This document shows positions 14,119 through 54,840 of a DNA stretch of 64,000 nt, one piece after another. Position numbers and translations under genes: made by a program. The notes under the pieces are model-generated. The model saw only the letters and a program-made list of their open reading frames with translations, had not been told where the DNA came from and searched no databases. Position 1 is the stretch's first letter. Each line of letters starts with the position of its first letter. Source of the DNA: a plasmid; the sequence record NZ_CP118992.1, one strand, 5' to 3'.

Positions 14119-14171
14119 CCCTGCCGACTGTTCAGAAAACGGTGGTTTGTTGGACAGTTGCCGCAAGGGGC

Positions 14172-14699: not shown

Positions 14700-14780
14700 T
14701 ATCCGGCGAATTCGCGCTTTCTGTCAGGCGCTATCGCTGAGGCCTTGGAACGTGCCGACCCGGAAAGCCTGCACCGTGCC

Positions 14781-28396: not shown

Positions 28397-29863
28397 ATGC
28401 GGAGGCTGGGGATGAAGCGATTCATTGAAGGCGAAAGTCGAAACCAGATCACCTTGATGCCAGCCTGCCTGGACGACTATATCGACACTGACAATCCCGT
28501 GCGCGTCATTGATTTGTTTGTCGACGAACTTGATCTGGTCGAACTGGGATTTGACGGTACGGTCGCTGCGGCGACGGGACGGCCGGGTTACCATCCCGCG
28601 CTGTTGCTGAAGATCTACATCTATGGTTACCTGAACCGAATTCAATCGAGCCGGCGCCTGGAGCGCGAAACGCAGCGCAATGTTGAATTGATGTGGCTCA
28701 CGGGACATCTGTCTCCGGACTTCAAGACCATTGCCGACTTCCGTCACGACAACGGCAAAGGCATCCGTAACGTGTGCAAGCGGTTTGTGGCCCTCTGTCG
28801 CCAACTCAACCTGTTCAGCCAAGCGGTCGTGGCCATCGATGGCAGCAAATTCAAAGCCGTCAATAACCGGGACAAGAACTTCACGCCGCACAAACTCGAA
28901 CAGCGGATGAAGCAGATTGATGAAAGCATCGAGCGCTATCTGAATGCCCTGGACACGGCCGACCGGACGCAACCGGCTGATCTTGAAGCGAGAACCGCGC
29001 ACTTGCAAGAGAAGCTGGACAAGCTCAGGAAACAGATGCACTACCTGCGGGACATTGAGCAACAATTGAAACAGCAACCGGATCAGCAACTGTCACAAAC
29101 CGACCCGGATGCTCGCTCGATGGCCACCAGTGGCCGCGGTACTGGCATGGTCGGCTACAACGTCCAAACCTCTGTCGAGATCCAGCATCACTTGATCGTC
29201 GCCCATGAAGTCACGAATCTAGGGTATGACCGAACGCAACTCGCCAAGATGGCCTTGCAATCACGCGAAGCGCTCGCGGTTGAGAACATCGAAGCCATCG
29301 CCGACCGGGGTTATTACAAGGGACCGGAAATATTGAAGTGTGTCGAGGCGGGAATCACGCCCTCGGTGCCAAAGACCATGACCAGCAACAACAAAGCCAA
29401 AGGGTTATACGACAAACGTGATTTCGTCTATGTCGCGCAGGACAACGAATATCTTTGTCCTGCAGGGAAGCAGCTGATCTATCGTCACTCCTCGCTGAAG
29501 GATGGGATGAGAATTGATGATTACTACGCTTCGTACTTAACCTGCCAGCAGTGTGCGCTGAAAGCACAGTGCACTACCGGCAAGGAACGGCGGGTAAAGC
29601 GATGGGAACATGAAGGCGTCCTTGACGCCATGCAGGATCGCCTGGACCGGAACCCAGGGAAGATGAAACAACGACGGTGTACCGTCGAGCATGTCTTCGG
29701 AACACTGAAGTTCTGGATGGGGTCGGCGCATTTCTTGATGAAAACCCTCAAACATGTGAGCACGGAAGTGAGCTTGCACGTGCTGGCCTACAACCTTCGG
29801 CGAGTCATCAACATTCTCGGTGTTGAGAAACTCATGAGATCGATACGGTTACTTGCCGTTTAA
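28397..29863 (+). CDS. IS1182-family transposase (488 aa); the IS is inserted just inside the transposon's left IR.
   Basis: N-terminal InsH_N-like region (...ITLMPACLDDYIDTDNPVRVIDLFVDELDL...GRPGYHPALLLKIYIYGYLNRIQSSRRLE) and a C-terminal DDE region typical of IS1182/IS5-superfamily transposases. Confidence 0.8.
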   Translation: MRRLGMKRFIEGESRNQITLMPACLDDYIDTDNPVRVIDLFVDELDLVELGFDGTVAAATGRPGYHPALLLKIYIYGYLNRIQSSRRLERETQRNVELMWLTGHLSPDFKTIADFRHDNGKGIRNVCKRFVALCRQLNLFSQAVVAIDGSKFKAVNNRDKNFTPHKLEQRMKQIDESIERYLNALDTADRTQPADLEARTAHLQEKLDKLRKQMHYLRDIEQQLKQQPDQQLSQTDPDARSMATSGRGTGMVGYNVQTSVEIQHHLIVAHEVTNLGYDRTQLAKMALQSREALAVENIEAIADRGYYKGPEILKCVEAGITPSVPKTMTSNNKAKGLYDKRDFVYVAQDNEYLCPAGKQLIYRHSSLKDGMRIDDYYASYLTCQQCALKAQCTTGKERRVKRWEHEGVLDAMQDRLDRNPGKMKQRRCTVEHVFGTLKFWMGSAHFLMKTLKHVSTEVSLHVLAYNLRRVINILGVEKLMRSIRLLAV

Positions 29864-30383
29864 GGTCAGGTGGCCTTTTTTACGGCTCGATTTGACCGTA
29901 CTCTAAGGCGATTAGGACCCTCAGTTTCGATCTCAGAAAGCTGTCGGCCTCGATTTGATCAACAACGGGTAAAACACGCGCTCAAGCGCGCGGCGAACGG
30001 TAACTCAATTGCGTTTCCACACGGCCTCGACCCAAAGGCGACATCCCAGAGAAATGGGAGCAGCCATTCGCCGCTCGGGAAAGCGGATCGAAAGCGGCCG
30101 CTCACGAGGCCAACTCCGGATTCATGAATGAACATGCGGTAGTGCAGCTCAGACTGTTGACCCCAAGAAACAACTGGGCAACATTTCCCTGGCGATACCA
30201 GAAACCTGTCAGTTGTTTCTGAGGAAGGGAGGGCGAGTCAATCCGTATAACGTTTTGCCATATAATGGCATCTATGCGTTTAGTCTAGTAATTACTGGAC
30301 ATTACTGGATTCCACTTACGTAGCAAACGCCATTGCCGTACTATCCCAACTCAATTTCCTTGAAACACTTTTGCAAAGCCACC

Positions 30384-31994
30384 ATGACTATTCGACGTCT
30401 GATTTCACTTTTCACCCTGGCGACACTTGTCTTGTTGAGCGTACTCATCTTTACGCTCTGGTCAGGCTTCCGAAATGCACTGGAAACTTCACGTGACGAG
30501 AACACCGTCGCACTGCCGGCTTTGGTGTCAATGCTGGAAACGCGTTTCAACGTGGTTCAGGTCCAGCAGTTCCTTACCGATGTCTCGGCGACCGGTGAGT
30601 CCGACGGCTTCAAGGAAGCCAAGACAGCCTACGATGAAGCGATCAAGGATCTGGATAACATCGCCCGGCTCCAACCAAAGCTTGCCGACCAGGCGGCCAA
30701 GGCGAAAGACAGCTTAGGCAAGTTCCATACGTTCGGCATCGAAATGGCCAAGGCCTACAACAGCGGTGGTCAGGAAGCAGGCAACGCGCTGATGAAGCGC
30801 CCCAATGATGGTTTCGACGCTCTGGCGGAACGGCTGACCGGCCAGCTTGAGAGTCTGGAGAAAACCGTTCGCGAGCACATGGCGGAATCCGCAAGCATTG
30901 CGGAAACCGGAATCCAGCGGGCGCAGGGCACAAGTACCGGGCTCGGCGTCGCCATCGGTGTGCTGATGCTGCTATCGGGTTTCATGCTCTACCGGTCGCT
31001 GATCCGGACACTCGGCGGCGAACCCGTGGAGGCTGCAAGGATTACGCAACGCATCGCCGGTGGCGACCTCACCCACGAAATCAGAATCCGCCCCGGTGAT
31101 CAGCACAGCCTGCTGGCGGCGATCCGGGCCATGCAGGAGAGTCTGCGCACGATCATACGCGGCATCGGCGAGTCAGCCGACACGCTGACCGCTTCGGCGC
31201 ACGAGATCTCGCTCGCCGCCAATCAGGTCGCGACGGCGGCCCATACCCAAAGCGACAAATCCGCGTCGATGGCCGCGTCGATCGAGGAAATGGCGGTGTC
31301 AATAACCCATATCACCGAAAGCGCCAGCGGGGCACATCAGAGCGCGGTCGATGCGCGGAGCCTTTCCGATGTCGGCGAAGCCGCGGTGGATGAGGCGATT
31401 GCCGAAATGGACGGAATTTCTGCAGCGGTGATGAGCACGGCCGAGTCGGTGAAGGTGCTCGGCGATCGCTCGGAGCAGATTTCAAAAATCGTCGATGTGA
31501 TCCGTGAAATTGCCGACCAGACCAATCTTCTCGCCTTGAACGCGGCCATTGAGGCGGCGCGAGCGGGCGAGCAGGGGCGCGGCTTCGCGGTCGTCGCTGA
31601 CGAAGTGCGCAAACTCGCCGAACGCACGACCAAGGCGACCAGCGAAATCAAGGCAACGGTCGATTCCGTGCGTGAGGGCACCGTCAGGGTGGTCAACGAA
31701 ATGGCCGGCGGCAGTGACCGTACACGAGCCGGAGTGGTGATGATCCGGCGCGCCGGCGAAACGATGGGCAAGATTCAGGACGGCGTGGGCCAGATGATGA
31801 GCGCGGCCGAGGAGATATCCGCGTCGCTGCGCGAGCAGAACACGGCCAATCACGACATCGCCCGCAATGTCGAAGGCATTGCCCAGATGACCGAGGAAAC
31901 CAGCGCCGTGGTCCGTTCGGTCGCCAAGTCGGCCGAACACCTCGAAAAGCTGTCCGTTTCAATGAGCGAGTCGGTGCATAAGTTCCGGATCTGA
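30384..31994 (+). CDS. Methyl-accepting chemotaxis protein (2TM, HAMP, MA signalling domain) carried as transposon cargo.
   Basis: TM helices, HAMP ([16 protein letters not shown]) and the highly conserved MCP signalling region (...[38 protein letters not shown]...). The identical gene is in copy B (59676..61286). Confidence 0.85.
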
Positions 31995-32194
31995 CGCTTA
32001 TCGCTTCTTTGATGCCCTCCAGTGGAAAGATTGGGCAACACAGGTTCAACGACTGCATACAGGTAAGTAATCCAAGGCAACGGCGGCTTTAGAGGAAATT
32101 TTTCACCGGCCGGTTATGGCCGGCTGCACTCATTGGGATTTTAAACCTGAACGGCAGCCCTATGATGCAAAGGAGCCGTTCAACTCAATACGGA

Positions 32195-33022
32195 TCACCG
32201 CTCTGGCAGCTTACCCAGTTGCTTGATGACGCCGATGCCAACCAAGGAGCGCATCTGCGTGATCGCGATGGCGTTTAATTGCGTCAATCGCTCCGGCGCT
32301 GAAAGCCCTTGATGGATCAGGACCGCGTTGATGCTCTCCATATTGGATAGCACGACCAATTGCTCCAGGGTCGCGATATCACGCATGTTGCCGGTTTGGT
32401 CGGGATTGGCTTGCCGCCATTGAGTGGCCGTCATCCCAAACAGTGCGACGTTGAGTAGATCGGCTTCGCTGGCATAGACGGTGGCGGTTTGCGTTTTGGT
32501 TAGTTGCGGCGGAATCAGGCGTTCCTTGATGGCGTCCGTGTGAATACGGTAGTTGACCTTGGACAGCGTGCGCTGGAAATTCCATTCCAGCGAAATGGCT
32601 CGCGCTTCTTCATCCTTGAGGCGCTGAAATTCCTTGATCAGGTACAGCTTGAACTCGGGGCTGAGCCAAGAACCGAATTCGAAAGCGATATCCTTGTGGG
32701 CATAGGTGCCGCCGCCACGTCCAGCTTTGGCATAGAGACCGATGGCGTCTGTGGTATCGATCCATTTTTTCGGCGACAGTGAGAAACTGTTCAGACCGGC
32801 CTGACTCTTAAACCTCTCGAATTCGAGAGGTTTAAAGGCTGGGTTGTAAATTTGCTCCCATATACCGAGGAACTCTATGGTGTTGCGGTTCCGCAACCAA
32901 CTGTAGAGAACGCTTTCATCCCCGAATCGTTTCACCATGTCAGTCAGTGAAATGTAATCCTGTTCGTGACGAGTCGTGATGGTCACTTCGGCGCCGTGCA
33001 CCGTAATGCTGCGATTTTTCAT
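32195..33022 (-). CDS. KilA-N domain protein (N-terminal KilA-N/Bro-N-like DNA-binding domain plus C-terminal region).
   Basis: ...ITVHGAEVTITTRHEQDYISLTDMVKRFGDESVLYSWLRNRNTIEFLGIWEQ... fits KilA-N. Start taken at MKNRS (33022). A convergent terminator hairpin lies between it and the MCP gene. Confidence 0.6.
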   Translation of the reverse strand: MKNRSITVHGAEVTITTRHEQDYISLTDMVKRFGDESVLYSWLRNRNTIEFLGIWEQIYNPAFKPLEFERFKSQAGLNSFSLSPKKWIDTTDAIGLYAKAGRGGGTYAHKDIAFEFGSWLSPEFKLYLIKEFQRLKDEEARAISLEWNFQRTLSKVNYRIHTDAIKERLIPPQLTKTQTATVYASEADLLNVALFGMTATQWRQANPDQTGNMRDIATLEQLVVLSNMESINAVLIHQGLSAPERLTQLNAIAITQMRSLVGIGVIKQLGKLPER

Positions 33023-33039
33023 GTTGATGAGTCCAAAGC

Positions 33040-33160
33040 CTGTCGGAAAACAACTGTTTTGCGACAGGCACCGTTCGGCTACCAAAATCGCGTATTAACC
33101 CCGCCAAAAAATATGCGGAAAACAATGCCGCTATGGTATAGCATACGGAAATCATAGGCT
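33040..33160. promoter_or_regulatory. Putative res (resolution) site upstream of tnpR.
   Basis: Inverted-repeat subsite TGTCGGAAAACAACTGTTTTGCGACA, plus further dyads before the tnpR start; the position matches res-tnpR-tnpA organisation. Confidence 0.4.
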
Positions 33161-33175
33161 ATGGGTTTTCCACAC

Positions 33176-33769
33176 ATGCTTGTCGGCTACATGCGCGTCT
33201 CTTCCGACTCTGATCGACAAACCACGGATCTACAACGCGATGCCCTGTTGGCGGCAGGCGTTGATGCGCGCCACCTATTCGAGGATCGCGCGTCCGGCGC
33301 CAAGGATGATCGTCCGGGGTTGGCCAAGGCGCTGGCGTTTGTTCAACCTGACGATGTTCTTGTCGTCTGGAAGCTGGACAGGCTTGGCCGCTCGCTGTCG
33401 CATCTGCTCACCATCGTTGACACGTTGCGGGAGCGGCAGGTCGCTTTTCGTTCGCTCACCGAAGGCATGGATACCACCACGCCATCGGGCGAGCTATTGT
33501 TTCAGGTGTTCGGTGCGCTTGCGCAGTACGAACGCGCCCTGACCCGAGAAAGGGTAATAGCCGGACTGGCGGCCGCCAAGCGACGGGGCCGACTCGGTGG
33601 CCGGCCACCGGCGATCATCGGCGAGAAACTGGACACCATCGTCGCCGCGCTGAATGGCGGCATGTCCAAGGCGGCTGTGTGCCGCAACTTTGGCGTCAAG
33701 CGCACCACGCTGATCGAAACCCTTGCCCGAGTTGGCTGGCCAAGTGCTGAGAAGATGCCGCAACGATGA
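33176..33769 (+). CDS. tnpR: Serine recombinase/resolvase TnpR.
   Basis: MLVGYMRVSSDSDRQTTDLQRDAL... carries the catalytic Ser motif and C-terminal HTH of resolvases. ATGA overlap with tnpA. Confidence 0.85.
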   Translation: MLVGYMRVSSDSDRQTTDLQRDALLAAGVDARHLFEDRASGAKDDRPGLAKALAFVQPDDVLVVWKLDRLGRSLSHLLTIVDTLRERQVAFRSLTEGMDTTTPSGELLFQVFGALAQYERALTRERVIAGLAAAKRRGRLGGRPPAIIGEKLDTIVAALNGGMSKAAVCRNFGVKRTTLIETLARVGWPSAEKMPQR

Positions 33770-36700
33770 GGCGTAAAAGCGAGCGGCTAACCGTTCTTTC
33801 GGAGGCCGAGCAATTCGCCCTGTACGGCATGCCTGACTTCGATGATGGACAGCAACAGGAGTATCTATCACTGACCGAGGCGGAACTGGCGCTCGCCTGC
33901 AGTCGTCCTGGTTTGCATGCCCAAGCTTACTGCGCTTTGCAGATCGGCTACTTCAAAGCCAAGCATGCCTTCTTCCGCTTTACTTGGGACGACGCGCCGG
34001 ACGATTGCGCCTTCGTCCTGACTCGCTATTTCAACGATCAGGCGTTCGAGCCGCACACGATCACCAAGCACGAGCGCTACGCGCAACGAACTCTGATTGC
34101 GAAGCTATTCGGCTACCGGCTATGGTCGACGGACTCCCTGCCACAACTCGTGCAACAAGCCAATCAGATCGTTCGGCGTGACATCACGCCCGGCTTCATC
34201 GTGGCCGAGTTGATCGTCTATCTCAACGAGCACAAGATCGTCCGGCCCGGCCTCACCACGTTGCAGGAACTGATCAGCGAAGCATTGTCCGCCGAACGCC
34301 GACGCTTGGGTGTGCTACTCGATGAGGTACTGGACGGCGAGGCCAAGGCCGCGCTGGCTCAACTTCTGGTGCGCGACGACACCCTGTCGGAGCTGGCGGC
34401 TCTCAAGCAGGATGCCAAAAGCTTCGGCTGGCGACAAATGGCGCAGGAGCGGGAGAAGCGTGCCAAGCTGGAACCGTTATACCGAATTGCCAAGACGCTG
34501 TTGGCCAGGTTGGCGATCTCGCAGCAGAATCTGCACTATTACGCGAGCCTGGCCAATTTTTACACTGTCTACGACCTTCGCCGCCTCAAACCCGAGCAGA
34601 CCAACTTGTATCTGCTGTGCTACGCCTGGCAGCGTTATCGACAGTTTACCGATAATCTCGTAGATGCCTTGGGCTACCACATGAAGCAGCTCGAAGACGA
34701 GAGCAAGGCGCGGTCGAATAAGCTCTTCGTCACGGAACAGATCCGTCGGCAACAGGAAACGCCGCGAGTCGGACGTTTGCTGTTGCTCTACGTCGACGAC
34801 ACGGTGGCCGATGTCACGCCTTTCGGCGACGTGCGCCAGCGTGCGTTCAAGATCATGCCGAAGGAGGCGCTGCAAATGACCGGCCAACGCCTCAGCGTGA
34901 AGCCCGCGAGCAAGCTGGCCCTGCGCTGGCAGACCGTTGACGGTTTGGCCGAACGCATCCGGCGCCACGTGCGGCCACTCTACGGGGCGCTTGAATTCTC
35001 CGGGGTCGTGCCGGATAACCCGTGGCTTGGGGCGCTCGCCTGGGTGAAGGGTGTATTCGCGAAACAGCAGCGACTGTCACACCGTCCTCTGGCCGAATGC
35101 CCCGAGGCCACCCTGCCCAAGCGTCTGCGTCCCTATCTATTGATATTCGACGCGGACGGGAAGCCCTTGGGCTTACATGCCGACCGCTATGAGTTCTGGC
35201 TTTACCGCCAACTCAGAAAACGCTTCAAGGCTGGAGAGATCTATCTGGACGACAGTCTGCAGCACCGCTGCTTTACTGACGAGCTGGTCTCCCTTGAGGA
35301 GAAGGCCAGCGTGCTCGGCCAGATGGACATTCCCTGGCTGCGCCAGCCCATCGGAGCGCAACTTGACGCGCTGAAGGCCGAACTCCACGAACAGTGGCTG
35401 GCGTTCAACCGTGAGTTGCGCCAAGGGAAGTTGAAGCATCTCGACTACGATAGCGAGCGCAAGACGCTGACCTGGCGCCGACCCAAGGCCGACAACGATA
35501 CCGCCAAACAGAACCGCTTCTATGATCAATTGTCGTTCTGCGATGTCGGTGACGTGTTCCGCTTTGTGAACGGGCAATGCCAGTTCCTGTCGGCGCTGAC
35601 ACCGCTGCAACCGCGCTACGTCAAGCAGGTCGCCGATTCGGACAGTCTGATGGCCGGTATCATCGCCCAGGCGATGAACCACGGCAACCTCGTCATGTCG
35701 CGCACCAGTGATATTCCCTACCACGTGCTGGAGACGACCTACCAACAGTATCTGCGCCAGGCATCGCTGCAGGCGGCCAACGACCGGATCAGCAATGGCA
35801 TTGCCGACTTGCCCATCTTCCCGCACTATTCCTTCGACCTTGGTGGAGCACTCTACGGCAGCGTCGATGGTCAGAAGTTCGGCGTGGAGCGACCGACCGT
35901 CAAGGCGCGGCATTCGCGTAAGTATTTCGGTCGTGGTAAAGGGGTCGTCGCCTACACCCTGCTGTGTAACCATGTGCCGCTGCAAAGTTGGATCATCGGC
36001 GCGCATGAGTTCGAGGCGCATCACGTGTTCGACATTTGGTACCGCAACACGTCCGATATCGTGCCAACCACGATTACCGGTGACATGCACAGCGTCAACA
36101 AGGCGAACTTCGCCATCCTGTATTGGTTTGGTCTACGCTTCGAGCCGCGTTTCACCGATCTGGAAGAGCAACTGAAAGAACTCTACTGCGCCGATGATCC
36201 GGCGCTGTACGAAAAATGCCTGATTCGCCCGGTCGGCCAGATCAACCTGCCCGCCGTCATTGATGAGAAAAGCAACATTGATCAGATCGTGGCCACGCTA
36301 GGCCTCAAAGAGATGACGCAGGGCACACTGATCCGCAAGCTGTGCACCTACTCCGCATCGAACCCAACGCGGCAAGCCATATTCGAGTTCGACAAGCTGA
36401 TTCGCAGCATCTACACGTTGCGCTATTTGCGTGATCCTCAGTTGGAGCGCAACGTCCACCGCTCGCAGAATCGCATCGAGTCCTACCACCAGCTGCGTTC
36501 AGCCATCGCTCAGGTCGGCGGCAAGAAGGAATTGACCGGCCAGACCGACATCGAAGTCGAAATCAGCAACCAGTGCGCGCGGCTGATCGCCAACGCCATC
36601 ATCTACTACAACTCGGCGATCCTTTCGCGGCTGTTGACCAAGTGTGAAACCAGCGGAAACGAGAAAGCCCTCGCCCTGCTCAAGAAGATTTCGCCGGCAG

Positions 36701-36798
36701 CGTGGCGCCATATTCACCTGAACGGGCACTATACCTTTCACGGCGATGGTCAGATTATCGATCTGGATGCGATCGTGGCGGGGCTGGAATTGGGTTGA
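33766..36798 (+). CDS. tnpA: Tn3-family DDE transposase TnpA (1010 aa).
   Basis: Full-length Tn3-family transposase (N-terminal DUF4158-like region plus DDE_Tnp_Tn3), ending inside the terminal IR. An identical copy is at 54872..57904 (-). Confidence 0.9.
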
Positions 36799-38735
36799 CG
36801 GAATTTTCGGCGGTTTGGGCTTACCCCCCCATAATTCCGCTCCGACATCTGCGCGATGTTTTCGACACTCTTGGCGACCTCATTATTCGCATAGCTTTGC
36901 TCGCGAAGCGAGGTGGAAATGCCATCGATTGCTGCCAGAACATTGTCGGTGCTGCCATGAATAGTCGCCATGGAATTCCCCGTATTTCTAACGAGTTCCA
37001 TGCCCTCATTGACCATAACAGTTCCTTGCACCATGCTTTCCACCGCCTGCATCGTGCCGTTGCGTATCGCTTCGATCATGGTGGCGATGTCCTGGGTGGA
37101 GAGTTTCGTGCGTTCGGCCAGCTTTCGCACCTCGTCGGCGACCACGGCAAAGCCTCGCCCCTGCTCCCCAGCCCGTGCAGCTTCGATGGCCGCGTTGAGC
37201 GCCAGCAGATTGGTCTGGTCGGCAATCTTCTTGATGACATTGACGATATCCGCAATCTTGTGGGATTGCTCGTCAAGGGCTTGCATGAAATTCGATGACT
37301 GATTGACGTTTTCGACGATCTTGTTCATTTCAGCGACCGTTTTCTGGGCAAACAGCTCCCCTTCTTCGGCCATCTGCTTTGAATCAATTGCACTCTTGTT
37401 TACGTCCACCGTATTGTCCGATATGTGGCCGATGCTGACCGTCATCTCTTCGACCGTCGCCGCGACAGCCGCTGCGGCATCTGTCTGCTGGTTAGTTGCC
37501 TCATGCACTTGATGCGATGAGGCCGACAATTGCTTGGCGAAACCAGCCAGTTGAACCGTCGCTACGACGATTTGTTCGACCATTTCACGCAACCCGTCCT
37601 GCATCGACTTCATAGAAGCCAGAAGGCTTGTCGTATCGTTGGACTGGAGGTTGATCGTTGCCGACAGATCGCCTTTGGCTATTCTCCGGGCAACCCCGGA
37701 GGCGTACTCGGGCTCTCCACCCAACGTTTCTAGCAGGTTGCGGACAATGGCAAAGCAAATCCACAGGGTCAGGCCGACAGCTACCAGAAGCAGGCTGGCG
37801 TACGAAACGAATGCATCACGATCTGCATCCATATTCGCGTGGATTTCCTGCTGGATATCCTTTGTGTAGCTTTCCTCGACCGTCCTCAGCAGGTCAATTT
37901 TTGCAGTGATTTTGGCAAACCAGTCCTCCGGGGAATAGACCAGCTCGGCATTTGCACCCTTGTCCTTGACCATCTGTTCGATGGTGCCCACTTCCTTGAA
38001 AATCGGCTCGGCTAGCTTGGCACGCAGTAGTTTTTCCTGATCCGGCGTGGCGTACCCGATGGCCAGGCGCAAATAGGTGGCCTGATCGTTGATCAGACTC
38101 TGAAAAGTGCTGAATTGTTCAGAAGTCAGGCGCCCGGCGCTGAAGCCGCCGGCTACCAATCCCCGCTCCTGACTGTTGCGTTCCTTCAAGAACAATACTG
38201 CCTGTTTGGCATTCGACAGGCGTGACAGTTTCGATGACGGCATCTGGTTTCCGGTACGCAGCACGATTTCCAGTAACTGCGAAATCGTCTCGCTGTAGAA
38301 GCGGAAGGACTCACCGGGTTCAAGCGAGAGACGTGTTATCTGTTCGCGTTTTTTTTCGAGTTCGGCCAAAGGCGCGCTCACCGTTGCAAGAAGCTTGATA
38401 TAGCGCGGCCCGACCATGGACGCGTCGATACGCCGGATGCTTTCATTCAGACGAGAGATGGCGGTATCAGAAAGCTTGCGCTGCGCCGTGAGGTTCTCGG
38501 CAAATTTTCCGCCCTTGCTGTTGAGGAAGCCGGAGCTCATGCCGCGCTCCTTCTGTAGCTCATGCACTGTTTCACCCAACTCGACGACCAGGCTGACCAG
38601 AGATTCTGCCTGAACACGAGACTGATAATCTGAGTACTTGTTCCAGGCTCCGCTTAGGCCAAGGACCAACATGACCGTAATCGGCACGGTGGCGATCAGC
38701 AACAAACGGCTTTTCAAACTCGTCTTTTCAAACAT
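36750..38735 (-). pseudogene. NIT-domain methyl-accepting chemotaxis protein; its 3' end (C-terminus) is replaced by transposon IR sequence.
   Basis: N-terminal NIT-like sensor region (...[31 protein letters not shown]...), HAMP and MCP signalling domain. The last ~15 residues are encoded by the Tn3-family IR (36790..36830), so the native C-terminus (~30 aa) is lost. Confidence 0.7.
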
Positions 38736-38975
38736 TCACGTCCCCTGATTGTTCATAAATATTGAGCCAAATTCTAACTGATATTCGAGTCTGTCTGCCC
38801 GAATTGTGCCGCCGGACGGCGAGCCTGCCACCAAGGCCTCACGTTGCGCCAGCCAGGACGCCGACAACTTGCCGCGAAGCAACTGGCTGATGCCCACCTC
38901 GAGGTGTCCCATGGCCATTGCTGTAAAACAGCGTACAAACCTTTCCAGATTTCCGGGGTGATCAGCGTCCAATAG

Positions 38976-39281
38976 TTGCCACTGTCATTTTCAGAAGACG
39001 ACTGCACCAGACAACGCGGTTTGAAGGCTGTTGTGCAGTCGTCTATTGAACGAACAGTATCAGGAGTCCGCTGCACGAATGATGACCTCAAGCCGGTTCT
39101 GGTCGCGCTGGCGACCGATCAGCCCCTGGATGTGCGATACCGCGACCACGATCTTTCCGGCGATTGGGCGGGCTACCGCGAATGCCACATCAAGCCCGAC
39201 CTGCTGCTGATCTACCGCAAGTCCGACGCCGACACCCTGCGACTGGCGCGGCTTGGCTCCCATAGCGAGCTGTTCGGCTGA
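38976..39281 (+). CDS. RelE/YafQ-family mRNA-interferase toxin with no adjacent antitoxin; start uncertain (TTG 38976 or GTG 39033).
   Basis: C-terminal RYRDHDLSGDWAGYRECHIKPDLLLIYRKSDADTLRLARLGSHSELFG matches the RelE/YafQ catalytic consensus (compare YafQ ...YKDHPLQGSWKGYRDAHVEPDWILIYKLTD..FERTGTHAALFG). The GTG at 39033 lies within the right arm of a 12-bp hairpin. Confidence 0.65.
   Translation: MPLSFSEDDCTRQRGLKAVVQSSIERTVSGVRCTNDDLKPVLVALATDQPLDVRYRDHDLSGDWAGYRECHIKPDLLLIYRKSDADTLRLARLGSHSELFG
38996..39044 (+). promoter_or_regulatory. 12-bp-stem hairpin AGACGACTGCAC-(25 nt)-GTGCAGTCGTCT in the toxin leader, overlapping the candidate start codon.
   Basis: Perfect inverted repeat, also present in the disrupted paralog at 14191..14239. 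Confidence 0.4.
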
Positions 39282-39407
39282 TGCCAGTCGCCTTGTCCGC
39301 CAAACGATCATTAGGCGGCCAAACCGGACGCCTGTCCGAAAACATCTTGCGCAACGGGATGACGGACAATAAGATAGGCGGACGGTATAACGGACAAATG
39401 GGCGGAA

Positions 39408-39983
39408 ATGGCACTCATCGGCTATGCGCGGGTATCGACGGCGGAACAGGACACCGCCTTGCAGACGGATGCGCTGCGCAATGCAGGCTGCGAACGGGTT
39501 TTCGAGGACACGGCATCCGGGGCCAAGGCAGACCGGCCCGGCTTGGCCGATGCGCTGGCTTATCTGCGCGATGGCGATGTGCTGGTCGTCTGGCGGCTGG
39601 ATCGGCTTGGCCGCTCCCTGCCGCACCTGATTGAGACGGTCGGCAAGCTGGAAGCACGGGGCGTCGGCTTCCGCTCGTTGACTGAAAACATCGACACCAC
39701 CACGCCGGGCGGACGGCTCATCTTCCATGTGTTCGGTGCGCTGGGCCAGTTCGAGCGCGACCTGATCCGCGAGCGCACCAAGGCCGGGTTGACCGCTGCC
39801 GCCGCACGCGGGCGCAAAGGCGGACGCAAGCCGGTTGTCACTGCCGACAAGTTGCAACGAGCGCGGGAGCTTGTCGCCAACGGCTTGAATGTCCGCGAGG
39901 CCGCCGCACGCCTCAAGGTAGGAAAAACCGCTCTCTACGCTGCCTTGCAGGCGGCCAGTTCTGGCAGTGCAGCCGACTCCTGA
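39408..39983 (+). CDS. Stand-alone serine recombinase (resolvase/invertase family).
   Basis: MALIGYARVSTAEQDTALQTDALRNAGCERVFED... carries the resolvase catalytic domain and C-terminal HTH. The upstream dyad TGTCCGAAAACATC...GACGGACA resembles a res subsite. Confidence 0.85.
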   Translation: MALIGYARVSTAEQDTALQTDALRNAGCERVFEDTASGAKADRPGLADALAYLRDGDVLVVWRLDRLGRSLPHLIETVGKLEARGVGFRSLTENIDTTTPGGRLIFHVFGALGQFERDLIRERTKAGLTAAAARGRKGGRKPVVTADKLQRARELVANGLNVREAAARLKVGKTALYAALQAASSGSAADS

Positions 39984-40134
39984 TATTTCGTGCAGTCGCC
40001 TTCTGAAAACGACAGGCTGTTCGAGCTTTTTACGCCAGTAAGCAAACTGGTGATAGACCAGTGCCTGGCTTTTGCAAAAGGCGTGGCCGGAGAGGCCGGA
40101 GTCAAGCCAGGCAGTGATCTGCTGCTGCCAAAAA

Positions 40135-40410
40135 TCAGCACGTTCTTGAGTGGTCATAGTGAAAATCCAGCGAAGAGGTAATGGATTTCAAGTGTGACGA
40201 GCTGATTTTGGGAAAAAAAGATGCCGATTCAAGGGCGCTTACCCAATCTCTATCAGCTTTAACGCGGGGTAAGGTGTTGGACTGCTCAATACGTCGCGCA
40301 GTTCGGGTGGAAATGGCAGACTTCGCAGCAGCGATTTCTTGAGTCATGCCTTGTTGGCGATGCTGCATATACAGCTCCTCTTGTCGGTGAGTGATATGTT
40401 GTCCAGGCAC
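40135..40410 (-). pseudogene. N-terminal fragment of an IS21-family IstA-like transposase.
   Basis: ...QEELYMQHRQQGMTQEIAAAKSAISTRTARRIE resembles the IstA N-terminal HTH (compare IS21 ...EDFYMIKQMRQQGAYIVDIATQIGCSERTVRRYL). Truncated on both sides. Confidence 0.35.
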
Positions 40411-40590: not shown

Positions 40591-41851
40591 TCAGAGATCC
40601 CCTCATTTTTAGAGACTCAAATAATTCCAAGTGTGCGGGTATATAAGCGGTGTTGCTTCAGGTAGTAGATAAATTTATCCATCAACAAGACCGCATTGGT
40701 TTCTTTCATTTTAGGTAGCAACTGGTAATAGATGACCCCTTGCCGAAAGAACGAATAGGTTCGGCTCTTGCTGGTATTGACCTTGATCGTTCTCTCTAGA
40801 CCGACACTGTCTCCAGCCTTACCCAGCAGCGTCAGCAAGACGATGGCCAGGGCACTGAATAAAAACAGTCGGTCGCGCCGGACCGGATTACTGATGTGCA
40901 CATCTCCCATACCCATGCCGAATTTGTAATCTTTGATATCACGAAAACTGGTCTCGATACCCCAGCGCTGGCCGTATAGTTGCAACGCCTTGGCGGCGCT
41001 CAGGTCGGTCCGGTTACTGGCCAGAAACCACGCGTCTTTCATGCCACTCTTATGACAACAATAGACCCGTTCGACAGGCTGTCGCTGCCCAGTTAGCTCC
41101 ACCGCTTTGAGGGTTCGGGTGCGCCCGGTCGGCGTTAGCCAGTCCCGAGCTGGAACCTGCTCTACACCAGGGTAACCAACCAAAACATTTCCTTTAAATC
41201 TAATGAGATAAGCAAAGCCTAGCTCTTGCTCCAGGCGTTCGAACAGCTCCATGTAACCAAAGCCGCGGTCAGCTACTACCGTCACGAAGATACCCTCTGG
41301 CAACGTCTGCTTGAGCTTGGTGAGCAGCTCTTTCTCATGGGCATTGCGTTGCCCTTTGAGCAACGATTTCCGATGGGTTTTCCACAGCAGCGGAGTACTG
41401 CGACCGTGGTTGGTTTGCAGGCTGATAACCAAGGTACTGTGATCATCGGCATCGAATTCGGTCCAGTCCATGGAGACTACGATCTCGGTACGTTCACCGA
41501 CCACATAGGGCACCCAATCGTCAAAGAGGCTCCAGACATTGAGCTTGGTGTTAGTGAGCAGGCGATCCACCTGTTTAACCGCATGTTTACGTTCGAGACC
41601 GTTGGCCAAGGAGAGGCCACTACCGATGGCGTGGATGGCCAGTGAACCTGACTCGATAACCCCGAGGGTAGCATTGGCGAGGGAAAGAACACGCTTGGCA
41701 TGCATGTCCTGTCCAAATATATCGTCGATGTGGTTGAGGATTAGTTCGTGGTTAAACATGGGGATAGTCTGTTGGGTATTAGCTGGTCAAGGATGGCGAT
41801 CATACCTCAGAAGCCGCGCCACGCCTCGCTCATATGAGGGGATGGTTAAGC
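40591..41851 (-). mobile_element. IS4-family, IS10-like insertion sequence (copy 1, ~1.26 kb) with a 9-bp target duplication ATCGGACCC.
   Basis: Ends (T)CAGAGATCCCCTCAT... and ...ATGAGGGGATGGTTAAGC resemble IS10 termini. Direct repeat ATCGGACCC at 40582..40590 and 41852..41860. Inserted exactly at the LysR gene stop codon. Confidence 0.75.
40617..41759 (-). CDS. IS4-family (IS10-like) DDE transposase (380 aa).
   Basis: ...LQLYGQRWGIETSFRDIKDYKFGMGM... matches the IS4-family YREK signature region. Confidence 0.8.
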   Translation of the reverse strand: MFNHELILNHIDDIFGQDMHAKRVLSLANATLGVIESGSLAIHAIGSGLSLANGLERKHAVKQVDRLLTNTKLNVWSLFDDWVPYVVGERTEIVVSMDWTEFDADDHSTLVISLQTNHGRSTPLLWKTHRKSLLKGQRNAHEKELLTKLKQTLPEGIFVTVVADRGFGYMELFERLEQELGFAYLIRFKGNVLVGYPGVEQVPARDWLTPTGRTRTLKAVELTGQRQPVERVYCCHKSGMKDAWFLASNRTDLSAAKALQLYGQRWGIETSFRDIKDYKFGMGMGDVHISNPVRRDRLFLFSALAIVLLTLLGKAGDSVGLERTIKVNTSKSRTYSFFRQGVIYYQLLPKMKETNAVLLMDKFIYYLKQHRLYTRTLGII

Positions 41852-43450: not shown

Positions 43451-44979
43451 GTAACTGTTCACCCAGATGGCATTGACAGGAAAAAGTGAGACGATCATCC
43501 CTTGATCCACTGTTGCCCCTTGCCTGATCCCGCCAGCTTGGCACCATCACGTCATGAGCAAACCCATTACGCCACCACCCGGCCTGCCGCTGACCCTCGA
43601 GCAAGCCAACGAGCTGATTTACAAGCTGATGGCGCGCATCGCCGAGCTTGAAGACCGCCTCAACCAAAACAGCAATAACTCCTCCAAGCCCCCCTCCACT
43701 GATGGCTCGGGGACCCCGCCTGCGCGCAAGCGCCCCGCTTCCGGCAAGGCTCGTGGTGCCCAGCCTGGCCACAAGGGGCAGCGGCGTGAACGTCATCCTG
43801 AGGACGACCGACTGACGGCAATACCACACTATCCTGCCCGGCAGTGCGCCTGCTGTGGTGAGCAGGTGGTGTCCCATGACAAGCCCTACCGGGTTCATCA
43901 GGTGTTTGACCTGCCCGAGGTCAGCTATGTGGTGACAGAGCATCAGCTGTATCGGGGCACCTGCCGTGGGTGCGTCACCACCAGTGAAGCAGCCCTGCCC
44001 GATACGGTGAGCCACAGCCAGATGGGGGCTAATCTGCTGAGCTATATCGCTTTGCAGAGTGGTCAGTTCCACCAGAGCATCAGCAAGATACAGCAGCAGC
44101 TCAAGCAGCACTTCGGTTTGAGCTTTAGCCGAGGCGCCATCAGTGAAGCGCAAGGCCGGGTCAGCGCCATGCTCACCCCGACCCACCAAGCCATCAAACA
44201 GCAAGTGCAGTCTGCCGCCATCATCCATGCCGATGAAACCCGGCACCAGCGGGGCGGTGAGCGACGCTGGATGTGGCTGGCCCTGAGCAAGGTCGCGGTC
44301 TGCTTCATGACGGCGTTTGGCCGCGGTCAGGAGGCAGCGAAGCGGTTGCTGGGCAGTGAGCTTGATGGGGTGCTGGTGACCGACCAGTATGCGGGATACC
44401 GCTTCATCGACAGCGCCCAGCGCCAACTGTGCTGGGCGCATGTGCTGCGCAACGTGGCGGCGATTGCCGAGAGTAGCGACGCCGTCAACCAGCCTATCGG
44501 AGCCCGGCTGGTACTGCTGGCTGACACGGTGTTCAGAACCCGGCATGGCTATGAACAAGGCTGCTTAAGCCGGGAGCAGTACCAGCGAAGGTTGCAGCGA
44601 TGTCGGCAAAGCTGGCGAAGGCAGCTGGAGCGGGGCAGTGTACTGTGTTCCAAGCGCTACCGTGGGCGCTGCCAGTTACTGCTCAAGGACGATGAGATGC
44701 TATGGCGTTTTATGGAAAACGACGAGATAGCGCTGACCAACAATGAAGCGGAGCGGGCGCTGCGTGGCTATGTGCTGTGGCGCAAGGGAAGCTATGGCGT
44801 CTGGTCGCATCGAGGCGAGCAGTTCAGGCAGCGTATCCTATCGTTGGTGGAGACGGCCAAGCGATTGGGCCGCTGCCCGCAGGAGTGGCTGAGGGCAGTT
44901 GTCAGGTCCTGCATCGAGAAAACCGACTACCCGTTCCCGGAGGAGTTGGTGCTGTCAACACCGTCCCGGTGAACGGTTA
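43451..44979 (+). mobile_element. IS66-family single-ORF insertion sequence, copy 1 of 3 (1529 bp).
   Basis: Terminal IRs GTAACTGTTCACC / GGTGAACGGTTAC. 8-bp target duplication AACGGTGT (43443..43450 and 44980..44987). Confidence 0.8.
43554..44972 (+). CDS. IS66-family transposase (TnpC-like, 472 aa).
   Basis: N-terminal leucine-zipper/IS66 motif (LIYKLMARIAELEDRLNQNSNNSSKPPSTDG...KRPASGKARGAQPGHKG), a CxxC...CxxC zinc finger and a DDE domain. Identical copies at 45253..46671 and 46952..48370. Confidence 0.85.
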   Translation: MSKPITPPPGLPLTLEQANELIYKLMARIAELEDRLNQNSNNSSKPPSTDGSGTPPARKRPASGKARGAQPGHKGQRRERHPEDDRLTAIPHYPARQCACCGEQVVSHDKPYRVHQVFDLPEVSYVVTEHQLYRGTCRGCVTTSEAALPDTVSHSQMGANLLSYIALQSGQFHQSISKIQQQLKQHFGLSFSRGAISEAQGRVSAMLTPTHQAIKQQVQSAAIIHADETRHQRGGERRWMWLALSKVAVCFMTAFGRGQEAAKRLLGSELDGVLVTDQYAGYRFIDSAQRQLCWAHVLRNVAAIAESSDAVNQPIGARLVLLADTVFRTRHGYEQGCLSREQYQRRLQRCRQSWRRQLERGSVLCSKRYRGRCQLLLKDDEMLWRFMENDEIALTNNEAERALRGYVLWRKGSYGVWSHRGEQFRQRILSLVETAKRLGRCPQEWLRAVVRSCIEKTDYPFPEELVLSTPSR

Positions 44980-45149
44980 CAACGGTGTTGCTTCAGGTAG
45001 TAGATAAATTTATCCAGCAATAGGACTGCATTGGCCTCTTTCATTTTTGGCAGCAACTGGTAATAGATGACCCCTTGCCGAAAGAACGAATAGGTTCGGC
45101 TCTTGCTGGTATTGACCTTGATCGTTCTCTCCAGGCCAACGCTATCGCC

Positions 45150-46678
45150 GTAACTGTTCACCCAGATGGCATTGACAGGAAAAAGTGAGACGATCATCCC
45201 TTGATCCACTGTTGCCCCTTGCCTGATCCCGCCAGCTTGGCACCATCACGTCATGAGCAAACCCATTACGCCACCACCCGGCCTGCCGCTGACCCTCGAG
45301 CAAGCCAACGAGCTGATTTACAAGCTGATGGCGCGCATCGCCGAGCTTGAAGACCGCCTCAACCAAAACAGCAATAACTCCTCCAAGCCCCCCTCCACTG
45401 ATGGCTCGGGGACCCCGCCTGCGCGCAAGCGCCCCGCTTCCGGCAAGGCTCGTGGTGCCCAGCCTGGCCACAAGGGGCAGCGGCGTGAACGTCATCCTGA
45501 GGACGACCGACTGACGGCAATACCACACTATCCTGCCCGGCAGTGCGCCTGCTGTGGTGAGCAGGTGGTGTCCCATGACAAGCCCTACCGGGTTCATCAG
45601 GTGTTTGACCTGCCCGAGGTCAGCTATGTGGTGACAGAGCATCAGCTGTATCGGGGCACCTGCCGTGGGTGCGTCACCACCAGTGAAGCAGCCCTGCCCG
45701 ATACGGTGAGCCACAGCCAGATGGGGGCTAATCTGCTGAGCTATATCGCTTTGCAGAGTGGTCAGTTCCACCAGAGCATCAGCAAGATACAGCAGCAGCT
45801 CAAGCAGCACTTCGGTTTGAGCTTTAGCCGAGGCGCCATCAGTGAAGCGCAAGGCCGGGTCAGCGCCATGCTCACCCCGACCCACCAAGCCATCAAACAG
45901 CAAGTGCAGTCTGCCGCCATCATCCATGCCGATGAAACCCGGCACCAGCGGGGCGGTGAGCGACGCTGGATGTGGCTGGCCCTGAGCAAGGTCGCGGTCT
46001 GCTTCATGACGGCGTTTGGCCGCGGTCAGGAGGCAGCGAAGCGGTTGCTGGGCAGTGAGCTTGATGGGGTGCTGGTGACCGACCAGTATGCGGGATACCG
46101 CTTCATCGACAGCGCCCAGCGCCAACTGTGCTGGGCGCATGTGCTGCGCAACGTGGCGGCGATTGCCGAGAGTAGCGACGCCGTCAACCAGCCTATCGGA
46201 GCCCGGCTGGTACTGCTGGCTGACACGGTGTTCAGAACCCGGCATGGCTATGAACAAGGCTGCTTAAGCCGGGAGCAGTACCAGCGAAGGTTGCAGCGAT
46301 GTCGGCAAAGCTGGCGAAGGCAGCTGGAGCGGGGCAGTGTACTGTGTTCCAAGCGCTACCGTGGGCGCTGCCAGTTACTGCTCAAGGACGATGAGATGCT
46401 ATGGCGTTTTATGGAAAACGACGAGATAGCGCTGACCAACAATGAAGCGGAGCGGGCGCTGCGTGGCTATGTGCTGTGGCGCAAGGGAAGCTATGGCGTC
46501 TGGTCGCATCGAGGCGAGCAGTTCAGGCAGCGTATCCTATCGTTGGTGGAGACGGCCAAGCGATTGGGCCGCTGCCCGCAGGAGTGGCTGAGGGCAGTTG
46601 TCAGGTCCTGCATCGAGAAAACCGACTACCCGTTCCCGGAGGAGTTGGTGCTGTCAACACCGTCCCGGTGAACGGTTA
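45150..46678 (+). mobile_element. IS66-family IS, copy 2 of 3 (transposase 45253..46671).
   Basis: Identical to copy 1. Flanked on the left by CTATCGCC and on the right by AACGGTGT, i.e. hybrid flanks. Confidence 0.8.
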
Positions 46679-46848
46679 CAACGGTGTTGCTTCAGGTAGT
46701 AGATAAATTTATCCAGCAATAGGACTGCATTGGCCTCTTTCATTTTTGGCAGCAACTGGTAATAGATGACCCCTTGCCGAAAGAACGAATAGGTTCGGCT
46801 CTTGCTGGTATTGACCTTGATCGTTCTCTCCAGGCCAACGCTATCGCC

Positions 46849-48377
46849 GTAACTGTTCACCCAGATGGCATTGACAGGAAAAAGTGAGACGATCATCCCT
46901 TGATCCACTGTTGCCCCTTGCCTGATCCCGCCAGCTTGGCACCATCACGTCATGAGCAAACCCATTACGCCACCACCCGGCCTGCCGCTGACCCTCGAGC
47001 AAGCCAACGAGCTGATTTACAAGCTGATGGCGCGCATCGCCGAGCTTGAAGACCGCCTCAACCAAAACAGCAATAACTCCTCCAAGCCCCCCTCCACTGA
47101 TGGCTCGGGGACCCCGCCTGCGCGCAAGCGCCCCGCTTCCGGCAAGGCTCGTGGTGCCCAGCCTGGCCACAAGGGGCAGCGGCGTGAACGTCATCCTGAG
47201 GACGACCGACTGACGGCAATACCACACTATCCTGCCCGGCAGTGCGCCTGCTGTGGTGAGCAGGTGGTGTCCCATGACAAGCCCTACCGGGTTCATCAGG
47301 TGTTTGACCTGCCCGAGGTCAGCTATGTGGTGACAGAGCATCAGCTGTATCGGGGCACCTGCCGTGGGTGCGTCACCACCAGTGAAGCAGCCCTGCCCGA
47401 TACGGTGAGCCACAGCCAGATGGGGGCTAATCTGCTGAGCTATATCGCTTTGCAGAGTGGTCAGTTCCACCAGAGCATCAGCAAGATACAGCAGCAGCTC
47501 AAGCAGCACTTCGGTTTGAGCTTTAGCCGAGGCGCCATCAGTGAAGCGCAAGGCCGGGTCAGCGCCATGCTCACCCCGACCCACCAAGCCATCAAACAGC
47601 AAGTGCAGTCTGCCGCCATCATCCATGCCGATGAAACCCGGCACCAGCGGGGCGGTGAGCGACGCTGGATGTGGCTGGCCCTGAGCAAGGTCGCGGTCTG
47701 CTTCATGACGGCGTTTGGCCGCGGTCAGGAGGCAGCGAAGCGGTTGCTGGGCAGTGAGCTTGATGGGGTGCTGGTGACCGACCAGTATGCGGGATACCGC
47801 TTCATCGACAGCGCCCAGCGCCAACTGTGCTGGGCGCATGTGCTGCGCAACGTGGCGGCGATTGCCGAGAGTAGCGACGCCGTCAACCAGCCTATCGGAG
47901 CCCGGCTGGTACTGCTGGCTGACACGGTGTTCAGAACCCGGCATGGCTATGAACAAGGCTGCTTAAGCCGGGAGCAGTACCAGCGAAGGTTGCAGCGATG
48001 TCGGCAAAGCTGGCGAAGGCAGCTGGAGCGGGGCAGTGTACTGTGTTCCAAGCGCTACCGTGGGCGCTGCCAGTTACTGCTCAAGGACGATGAGATGCTA
48101 TGGCGTTTTATGGAAAACGACGAGATAGCGCTGACCAACAATGAAGCGGAGCGGGCGCTGCGTGGCTATGTGCTGTGGCGCAAGGGAAGCTATGGCGTCT
48201 GGTCGCATCGAGGCGAGCAGTTCAGGCAGCGTATCCTATCGTTGGTGGAGACGGCCAAGCGATTGGGCCGCTGCCCGCAGGAGTGGCTGAGGGCAGTTGT
48301 CAGGTCCTGCATCGAGAAAACCGACTACCCGTTCCCGGAGGAGTTGGTGCTGTCAACACCGTCCCGGTGAACGGTTA
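46849..48377 (+). mobile_element. IS66-family IS, copy 3 of 3 (transposase 46952..48370).
   Basis: Identical to copies 1 and 2. Right flank CTATCGCC (48378..48385) matches the left flank of copy 2 (45142..45149). Confidence 0.8.
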
Positions 48378-49080
48378 CCTATCGCCAGCCTTACCCAGCA
48401 GCGTTAGCAGGACAATGGCGAGGGCGCTGAACAAAAACAGTCGGTCGCGCCGGACCGGATTACTGATGTGCACTTCTCCCATACCCATGCCAAATTTGTA
48501 ATCTTTGATATCACGAAAACTGGTCTCGATACCCCAGCGCTGGCCGTACAGTTGCAACGCCTTGGCGGCGCTCAGGTCGGTCCGGTTACTGGCCAGAAAC
48601 CAAGCGTCCTTCATGCCACTTTTGCGACAACAATAGACCCGTTCGACAGGCTGTCTCTGTCCGGTGAGCTCCACCTGTTTGAGGGTTCGGGTGCGTCCGG
48701 TCGGCGTTAGCCAGTCACGAGCTGGAACCTGCTCTCCACCAGGGTAACCAACCAAAATATTTCCTTTAAATCTAATGACATAAGCAAAGCCTAGCTCTTG
48801 TTCCAGGCGCTCGAACAGCTCCATGTAACCAAAGCCTCGGTCAGCGACTACTGTCACGAAGATACCCTCTGGTAGCGTCTGCTTGAGTTTGGTGAGCAGC
48901 TCTTTCTCATGGGCATTACGTTGCCCTTTGAGCAACGATTTTCGATGGGTTTTCCACAGCAGCGGGGTACTGCGTCCATGGTTGGTTTGCAGGCTGATAA
49001 CCAAGGTGCTGTGATCATCGGCGTCGAATTCGGTCCAGTCCATGGAGACTACGATCTCGGTACGTTCACCGACCACATAG

Positions 49081-50124
<1,044 letters not shown>

Positions 50125-54171: not shown

Positions 54172-54840
54172 ATGCAAATTCTGAAAGCCTACAAATTCCG
54201 ACTCGAACCGACCGAGCAACAAGCGCAACGCCTGCGCCAGTTGGGCGGCTGTGCTCGTTATGTCTGGAATCACGGGCTTGTAGAGACAAAGCGCATTCTG
54301 GATTCCGGCGACAAGCTGCCATCATATTTCGATTTATCTCGGATGCTCACCCGTTGGAAGAAAGATCCAGAAATGGCCTTTCTGGCCGAGGCATACACCG
54401 ACAACCTCCAGCAGAAACTCAAGGATTTGCACGGCGCGTGGATGCGTTGTTTTGATAAAAAATTCGCCGCCAAGGCTCCCGTTTTCAAGAAGAAAAGCGA
54501 CAACCGAGACTCAATCCGGTTCGTCAACTTCGACAAGTATTGCCGCCTTGAAAAAGGGCGGGTGAAGCTGCCAAGCGGTCTGGCGTGGGTCAAGTTCCGC
54601 CAGTCACGCCCAGTCGAAGGGAAGATTAAAAACGCCACCGTCAGCCAATCAGCAGGACACTGGTATATCTCATTTCAGGTCGAGCAGGAGCTTCCAGAGC
54701 CAGCTCACCCGTCCGGCTCAATGGTCGGGCTGGATGCAGGGATTGCCAAGCTCGCAACCCTGTCAGATGGTACGGTGTTTGAGCCTGTCAACAGCTTCAA
54801 AACCAATCAGACCAAGCTGGCCAGGCTACAGCGCCAGTTG
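54172..54840 (+). pseudogene. tnpB: IS605-type TnpB (OrfB) N-terminal ~220 aa, truncated by the Tn3-family transposon copy B.
   Basis: MQILKAYKFRLEPTEQQAQRLRQLGGCARYVWNHGL... is the canonical TnpB N-terminus. The reading frame runs into IR GGGGGGTAAGCCC at 54841. Confidence 0.75.

Follow-up and report, generated by a model that had tools for sequence, protein, structure and literature searches.

ISPa17 has been described as an atypical insertion sequence (IS) with Tn402-like repeats, a toxin-antitoxin (TA) pair and a recombinase, which is often found next to class 1 integrons, and its movement has been credited to ISPa17 "transposases" (PMC6409357, PMC9952335, PMC3260659, PMC6614342). A yafQ-bearing relative has been reported as "IS4782" (PMC10537328). 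Here we analyze an element of 1,032 base pairs (bp), located at 38983-40014 in a stretch of 64,000 nucleotides (nt) from the plasmid record NZ_CP118992.1; this whole stretch is called the window in the following. The element has Tn402-type terminal repeats and contains an open reading frame (ORF) for a YafQ-type toxin sequence, which an earlier inspection of the letters by themselves (the sequence-only reading) had regarded as an orphan toxin gene with its start codon in a hairpin.

Three further groups of described systems are relevant for the comparison. The 25-bp repeats and the lack of tniABQ are shared by the window element with Tn6606 and Tn6607, which are defective members of the Tn5053/Tn402 family, and with In4-type class 1 integrons. 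These were found at res sites with 5-bp duplications, implying mobilization in trans (PMC7765201), a situation to be compared with the two intact copies (L026 and L025) presented below. They carry mer or integron cargo together with tni remnants, whereas the cargo of the window element consists of no more than a TA remnant plus a resolution module. In the TA modules of the Tn3 family (Lima-Mendez et al. 2020, PMC7157771) the TA genes lie beside res site I with the resolvase beyond, and swapping occurs within site I, as seems to be the case here. The module in the window differs from these in that it is bracketed by Tn402-type ends instead of Tn3-type ends, and in that its TA pair is destroyed. 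As for the toxin, the C-terminal ~65 residues of YafQ in Escherichia coli DinJ-YafQ (PDB 4ML0, 4Q2U) align with the product encoded in the window, but the window has no antitoxin gene, no native start and none of the N-terminal ~28 residues, which leaves a fragment and not a system.

In our judgement the ORF is very probably a dead remnant, that is, the decapitated tail of a DinJ-YafQ module which became fused to the end of an ISPa17-type (Tn402-like) mobile element, and ordinary decay accounts for it. Judged by its sequence, the element 38983-40014 is a truncated-TA member of the known group of ISPa17 and other tni-less Tn402-like elements.

Organization of the element and relation to ISPa17

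The features of the element are listed here with their coordinates in the window and their strand.

38983-40014: whole element, 1,032 bp, in the order t-end, yafQ remnant, res site, serine recombinase, i-end
38983-39007, plus strand: left terminal 25-bp inverted repeat with the Tn402 IRt sequence, TGTCATTTTCAGAAGACGACTGCAC; left boundary of the element
39033-39052, minus strand: inverted copy of the terminal repeat unit, 16/20 identical; the right arm of the hairpin, with the GTG, corresponds to its first 12 nt
39057-39076, plus strand: inner direct copy of the repeat unit, GTATCAGGAGTCCGCTGCAC, at offset 75; end of the t-end architecture
39077-39086, plus strand: fusion junction of the t-end to yafQ codon ~27-30, with the microhomology zone CACG...GAC; junction sequence GCTGCACGAATGATGACCTCAAGCC
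39078-39281, plus strand: 3' two-thirds of yafQ, residues ~27-93; stop codon at 39279-39281
39294-39400, plus strand: res region; site I (39294-39321) is TGTCCGCCAAAC-GATC-ATTAGGCGGCCA, followed by more TGTCCG/CGGACA half-sites
39408-39983, plus strand: serine recombinase/resolvase of 191 amino acids (aa), Pfam Resolvase 9.9e-49
39967-40014, minus strand: i-end, composed of the terminal 25-bp repeat 39990-40014 (TGTCGTTTTCAGAAGGCGACTGCAC, minus strand) and an adjoining direct unit; overlaps the stop codon of the recombinase gene

ISPa17, taken from pKJK5 (AM261282, 19423-21567) where it adjoins parA, shares the 25-bp Tn402-type repeats with the window element. The right repeat of the window (39990-40014) equals the published IRR, and the left repeat and the published IRL (PMC9952335) have a single mismatch. 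From res to the right end (39294-40014) both are 85% identical at the nucleotide level, with res and the serine recombinase near the right end in each of them. Common to ISPa17 and to elements of the window type are also the TA cassette abutting res site I, the lack of tniABQ, and the frequent position beside IRi/intI1 of class 1 integrons. ISPa17 differs by its length of 2,145 bp and by containing a complete PIN toxin, a MazE/AbrB-type antitoxin and an ORF of 180 aa, whereas the shorter window element has another t-end, fused to the truncated yafQ. Left of 39294 no homology to ISPa17 was detected except for the 25-bp repeat. By this comparison the window element is to be regarded as a relative or hybrid of ISPa17, not as ISPa17 itself.

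An exact pattern search for the 25-bp Tn402/Tn5053 repeat, with 0 matches expected by chance, located it at 38983-39007 (plus strand), at 14178-14202 (plus strand) and, inverted, at 39990-40014. The repeats are of the type TGTC(A/G)TTTTCAGAAG..., and the outer tips of those at 38983-39007 (plus) and 39990-40014 (minus) face outward. The sequence of the left repeat is also that of IRt in Tn402 (R751) and in a Tn5058-like mercury transposon of pMCBF6, and the first 94 nt of the element align column for column with the t-ends of these two transposons. In both of them tniA comes after the t-end, at the place where the window has the toxin ORF. Repeat units, which are copies of the terminal 20-mer, occur at offsets 6 (plus), 51 (minus) and 75 (plus) alike in the t-ends of the window, Tn402 and pMCBF6; the inverted unit at offset 51 is 14/20 identical in Tn402 and in pMCBF6 versus 16/20 in the window. 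L026, which is an intact element, has an inverted unit at offset 52. The i-end has two direct, adjacent units at offsets 6 and 29, as does the i-end of Tn402.

Neither tniA, tniB nor tniQ was found between the repeats according to the ORF list and Pfam, and the serine recombinase is the only complete gene there. Any movement would therefore need the tni functions in trans. We infer that the element moves only with TniABQ from a resident transposon of the Tn402/Tn5053 type, while its own res site and recombinase would resolve the cointegrates.

The truncated yafQ reading frame

The ORF at 38976-39281 (plus strand) extends over 101 aa if read from a TTG and over 82 aa if read from the in-frame GTG at 39033. 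Its product matches the Pfam family YafQ_toxin (E = 1.6e-26), though only at positions 20-88 of the 88 positions of the hidden Markov model. If the full-length YafQ of pOS401 is compared to the window by tblastn, residues 27-93 alone align, at 39078-39278 and with 91% aa identity, and solved YafQ-family chains align to the product from chain residue 26-42 on, depending on the construct. The conserved YafQ stretch amounts to about 67-70 aa and is longer than the catalytic core of 48 aa that had been assumed before. What is missing would correspond to the first strand and the first helix of the RelE/YafQ fold.

A second argument arises from the gene neighborhood of the relatives. All full-length relatives (80/80, one genome per species scanned) encode 93 aa and possess a RelB/DinJ gene directly upstream that overlaps the toxin start. 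The closest ones, including those of pOS401 (91% aa identity), pBAM1 and pF065, each follow an overlapping RelB/DinJ gene of 87-89 aa. Neither upstream nor downstream of the yafQ remnant is there a RelB/DinJ-like ORF, and tblastn with three DinJ proteins yielded no antitoxin anywhere in the 64-kb window, the best match (E = 0.019) lying within a chemoreceptor gene. The absence of an antitoxin gene near the toxin, as observed in the sequence-only reading, is borne out by this search. Its premise of a complete solitary toxin does not hold, however, since the N-terminus is absent, although a missed antitoxin ORF was not found. The alignments describe the locus as a yafQ remnant without its first 26-29 codons and without an antitoxin partner, and the remnant protein would be inactive.

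The intact element and the fusion

An intact version of the element, in which an inverted repeat, t-end, dinJ (89 aa), yafQ (93 aa), res, recombinase and inverted repeat follow each other over 1,479 bp, was present at 2 of the 80 loci. One is located in the chromosome of Pseudomonas nitroreducens TX1 (L026, with yafQ at 3001-3282), the other in a metagenome-assembled genome of Aquabacterium (L025). Their nucleotide identity to the window is 97%, beginning at 39068 and reaching 40017 in L026 or 40014 in L025, and their recombinases are 100% (L026) and 99.5% (L025) identical in amino acids to that of the window. Both copies are surrounded by perfect 5-bp target duplications, CGCGC in L026 and CGGCG in L025. 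Matching duplications at two unrelated sites show that the intact version moves as a unit. In neither of the two copies were tniABQ present. The L026 copy is situated 145 bp upstream of another serine-resolvase gene and after merA, merD and a gene with an EAL domain, and this position suggests the res region of a mercury transposon as its insertion site. In the plasmid collection no intact dinJ-yafQ-res-tnpR ancestor was found, the matches being only the truncated form, hybrids and separate halves; the intact form was found in genome contigs.

The t-end of the intact copies is only 75% identical to that of the window, which indicates that the window form is no simple internal deletion of the intact element. 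Homology to Tn402-type t-ends stops at 39077-39086, and homology to intact yafQ begins at 39068-39090, depending on the comparator. The parent would have been a small non-autonomous element of the Tn402/Tn5053 family with a t-end, dinJ, yafQ, res, a serine recombinase and an i-end. A single rearrangement very probably fused yafQ, at about codon 27-30, to the inner edge of another Tn402-type t-end. The TA promoter, dinJ and the toxin's N-terminal quarter would all have been lost in this one join. As the toxin was disabled in the same step in which the antidote was lost, such a join could explain how an addictive module was lost safely.

The res site and the recombinase

The recombinase of the window shows 93% aa identity to that of ISPa17, 88% to that of the Xanthomonas plasmid pXAC33 and 53% to TniR of Tn402, so that the resolution module is nearer to pXAC33 than to TniR in this respect. 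Homology to ISPa17 and to the res-recombinase region of pXAC33 begins exactly at 39294. In the Xanthomonas plasmid loci the res-recombinase part is ~85% identical at the nucleotide level, and a VapBC pair abuts res there, an arrangement reported for Tn3-family transposons (PMC7157771). In their t-end, yafQ remnant and site I up to its middle, the copies in pECLA, pFBAOT6 and pHD6448-1 are identical to the pRA3 type; they continue with ISPa17-type sequence from there. A switch inside site I is the expected signature of a resolvase-mediated exchange at this position. The res site probably works, or once did.

Flanks and target duplication

No 5-bp target duplication is present at the window copy (GCCAC versus GGCTG) or at the pRA3-type copies. 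The left flank 38736-38982 equals a flank in Aeromonas veronii pHD6448-1 (L012, 6037-6366) minus 84 bp, and the deletion ends at a GCCAC microhomology. GCCAC also precedes the element in pRA3-type plasmids, where the flank is otherwise unrelated. This suggests that the left flank was shaped by a microhomology-mediated replacement. The possibility that GCCAC is part of the element itself was rejected: pHD6448-1 has 84 extra bp between GCCAC and the repeat, so GCCAC is a microhomology of the flank. The "240-bp leader" of the toxin, which had been described before, has to be divided accordingly, with its last 94 nt belonging to the transposon end and the DNA further left being unrelated flank.

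Directly to the right of the element, at 40018-40157 on the minus strand, we observed the N-terminal 46 codons of an ORF (MTTQERADFWQQQITAWLD...) that is severed by the right repeat and has no match in Pfam. This piece presumably resembles an IS accessory or helix-turn-helix protein.

The missing duplication leads to a first alternative, in which the segment does not represent one element, but part of a TA-res-tnpR locus, from a Tn3-family transposon or a plasmid, that was trapped between two independent Tn402-like insertions. Besides the window copy without duplication, the Xanthomonas loci with VapBC abutting a similar res-recombinase part and the known insertion of Tn402-type elements at res sites (PMC7765201) would fit such a course of events. 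It is nevertheless very unlikely: both repeats have their outer tips (TGTC) directed away from the segment, which places yafQ, res and tnpR inside the repeats, a left t-end combined with a right i-end is the architecture of a single Tn402-type element, and the intact version is flanked by its duplications at two unrelated sites.

The hairpin and the activity of the toxin

The sequence-only reading was correct in noting a perfect 12-bp inverted repeat that includes the in-frame GTG at 39033. It consists of AGACGACTGCAC (38996-39007), 25 nt, and GTGCAGTCGTCT (39033-39044). The folding prediction that had been proposed for this region yields an RNA structure of -28.1 kcal/mol, more stable than shuffled sequences (z = -4.76; 0/200 shuffles equally good), and for the DNA fold z = -4.1 was obtained in comparison to shuffles. 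With loops of 3-40 nt allowed, the window has 18 matches to a perfect 12-mer inverted repeat, the mean of shuffled sequences being 0.18.

The origin of this hairpin can be followed in the repeat units. Its left arm represents the inner 12 nt of the terminal repeat and its right arm an inverted copy of the repeat unit, and the GTG is present because each repeat unit ends in CTGCAC, GTG being the complement of the final CAC. The intact element L026 has a stem as well, with 10/12 positions paired (counted manually from the L026 sequence) and z = -3.3, but there it lies ~150 nt upstream of dinJ and is unconnected to any toxin start codon. A family-wide conserved stem was considered and rejected, as the t-ends of Tn402, pMCBF6 and ISPa17 fold no better than shuffles. 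What the family conserves is the sequence and position of the repeat units, and not a structure bound to the start of a toxin gene. The hairpin is best regarded as a DNA-level architecture of the transposon end that is older than the yafQ fusion.

Several observations weigh against the reading of the ORF as a dead remnant at a transposon end. In the window copy no stop codon interrupts the ORF, and the equivalents of all four catalytic residues, which we take to be His50, His63, Asp67 and His87 of E. coli YafQ, are retained, so that some residual activity is conceivable. A weak Shine-Dalgarno-like GAAGG is found 6 nt upstream of the GTG. In Tn402 and pMCBF6 only 9/12 stem positions are paired by manual count, compared to the perfect stem in the window. 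As no duplication surrounds the window copy or the pRA3-type copies, transposition of the truncated form itself can only be presumed. Repeat units of this kind are reported to be TniA-binding sites in Tn402, and those in the t-end of the window are presumed to have the same role.

The open frame, the retained residues, the stable hairpin and the GAAGG could also be taken as signs of an active solitary YafQ-type RNase of 82 aa, whose GTG is hidden in a hairpin of the messenger RNA or which is countered by an RNA antitoxin encoded in the leader. The following points make this as improbable as the trapped piece discussed above. Translated transposon-end sequence takes the place of the first 26-29 residues of the fold, and the hairpin sequence is common to t-ends which precede tniA or dinJ. 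No family in Rfam matched within 38700-39500 at E <= 1, no sigma-70-like promoter was found near the ORF in a promoter/terminator scan of 38700-40100, and the intact parent element uses a protein antitoxin. A further hint comes from the codon of the His63 equivalent at 39186-39188, which is CAC in the window and TAC (Tyr) in pRA3, pFBAOT6, pECLA and pMS7884A, i.e. in 4/5 other plasmid copies translated; no sign of counter-selection is seen in these sister copies. From the three explanations offered by the sequence-only reading, the decayed locus is retained, whereas control at the RNA level and an RNA antitoxin are not supported.

More specifically, the truncated YafQ might keep its ribosome-dependent RNase activity and, with the start codon in the right arm of the stem, be translated only once the stem opens, for example during read-through transcription or transposition. 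We give this version slightly less credit again than the two foregoing alternatives. If it were true, the mini-element would be a carrier of an antitoxin-free toxin gated by a transposon-end stem.

Spread of the truncated form

A block of 1,040 bp recurs with 99.9% identity in more than 360 plasmid records. Besides the Tyr codon described above, residue differences between the copies are a sign of decay: among 366 close plasmid copies, about 142 fall into the identity band of 95-99%, with up to three differences, and the rows listed from this band (n = 4) have one residue difference each. The gene intI1 is found beside the element in 5/5 other copies examined; the window copy is not next to an integron.

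That the truncated ORF was kept for a new, non-toxic role, for instance as a decoy of DinJ-type antitoxins or as an accessory factor of the recombinase, is the least credible explanation of all, for although several hundred plasmid copies have an intact ORF, their identity of 99.9% points to recent spread and not to purifying selection, the sole common substitution strikes a catalytic residue, the second copy in the window is reduced to 150 nt, and no partner gene exists in the window.

The second copy and its neighborhood

The fusion of t-end and yafQ occurs a second time in the window, followed by a segment with ends of the Tn3 type.

14178-14327, plus strand: second, shorter t-end/yafQ fusion of 150 nt, 99% identical, starting exactly at the 25-bp terminal repeat
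14328-14699, no strand assigned: segment of 372 bp between two different Tn3-family 38-bp inverted repeats, abutting the cut-off copy

The duplication reported in the sequence-only reading is real, but it extends over 14178-14327 and not over 14166-14326, and the Tn3-type segment abuts it instead of disrupting it. Because yafQ is not resumed past 14699 and a 5-bp duplication is lacking, the second copy is cut off, not merely interrupted. The segment 14328-14699 has the repeat GGGGACGGTAGAG... at one end, no ORF and no flanking 5-bp duplication. Its other end presumably carries a Tn501-like repeat. With a coverage of 80% or more, this segment is present in at least 145 plasmid records; it may be a miniature Tn3-derived element or a place where two transposon ends meet. 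A Pseudomonas aeruginosa plasmid of ~40 kb, NZ_CP040685, shares the block 14101-14700 (98.8% conserved). Just left of the cut-off copy, at 14060-14130, three direct copies of GTTAGTGTTTCA(G/T)CGTAG were observed, which look like putative iterons of a replication origin.

Other features of the window

The element 38983-40014 is bracketed by two inverted, 100% identical Tn3-family copies of 7,654 bp (29178-36831 and 54839-62492), which are 18 kb apart and each encode a transposase of 1,010 aa, a resolvase of 202 aa, a KilA-N protein and a chemoreceptor of 553 aa. A further chemoreceptor of 661 aa with a nitrate/nitrite-sensing NIT domain is encoded at 36750-38735; the 3' end of its gene overlaps the terminal repeat of the Tn3-family copy ending at 36831, and a stretch of 172 nt in the gene (37106-37277) has 76% identity to a portion of the chemoreceptor gene that the transposon carries. 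At 43451-48547 three perfect tandem copies with a period of 1,699 bp are found, each with an IS66-family transposase of 472 aa (DDE_Tnp_IS66, zf-IS66). They are placed between transposase genes of the IS4 type (40617-41759 and 48375-49331), which are related to each other. Such a head-to-tail triplication of a whole IS is unusual.

Implications

For hundreds of resistance plasmids, among them pRA3, pFBAOT6 and IncHI2 plasmids with blaIMP-4, the NCBI pipeline calls the 82-aa ORF "type II toxin-antitoxin system YafQ family toxin". What it names is a fragment without its 5' part that begins within a transposon end. The yafQ remnant should be marked as a pseudogene and not be counted as a plasmid-stability or "orphan toxin" function.

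A similar caution applies to the mobility of ISPa17. No transposase domain was found in its ORFs, and for the ORF of 180 aa (L010, pKJK5 19597-20139), although the annotation and the literature call it a "transposase", Pfam gave no match at E <= 0.01. Self-movement of ISPa17, as it has been claimed, has no recognizable transposase domain to rest on. The intact element of 1,479 bp, with clean duplications at two sites, provides direct sequence evidence that such tni-less elements are moved as a whole via the Tn402 route. In the Tn3 family, TA pairs by rule border on res site I, where they can be exchanged; this rule apparently applies between Tn402-type ends as well.

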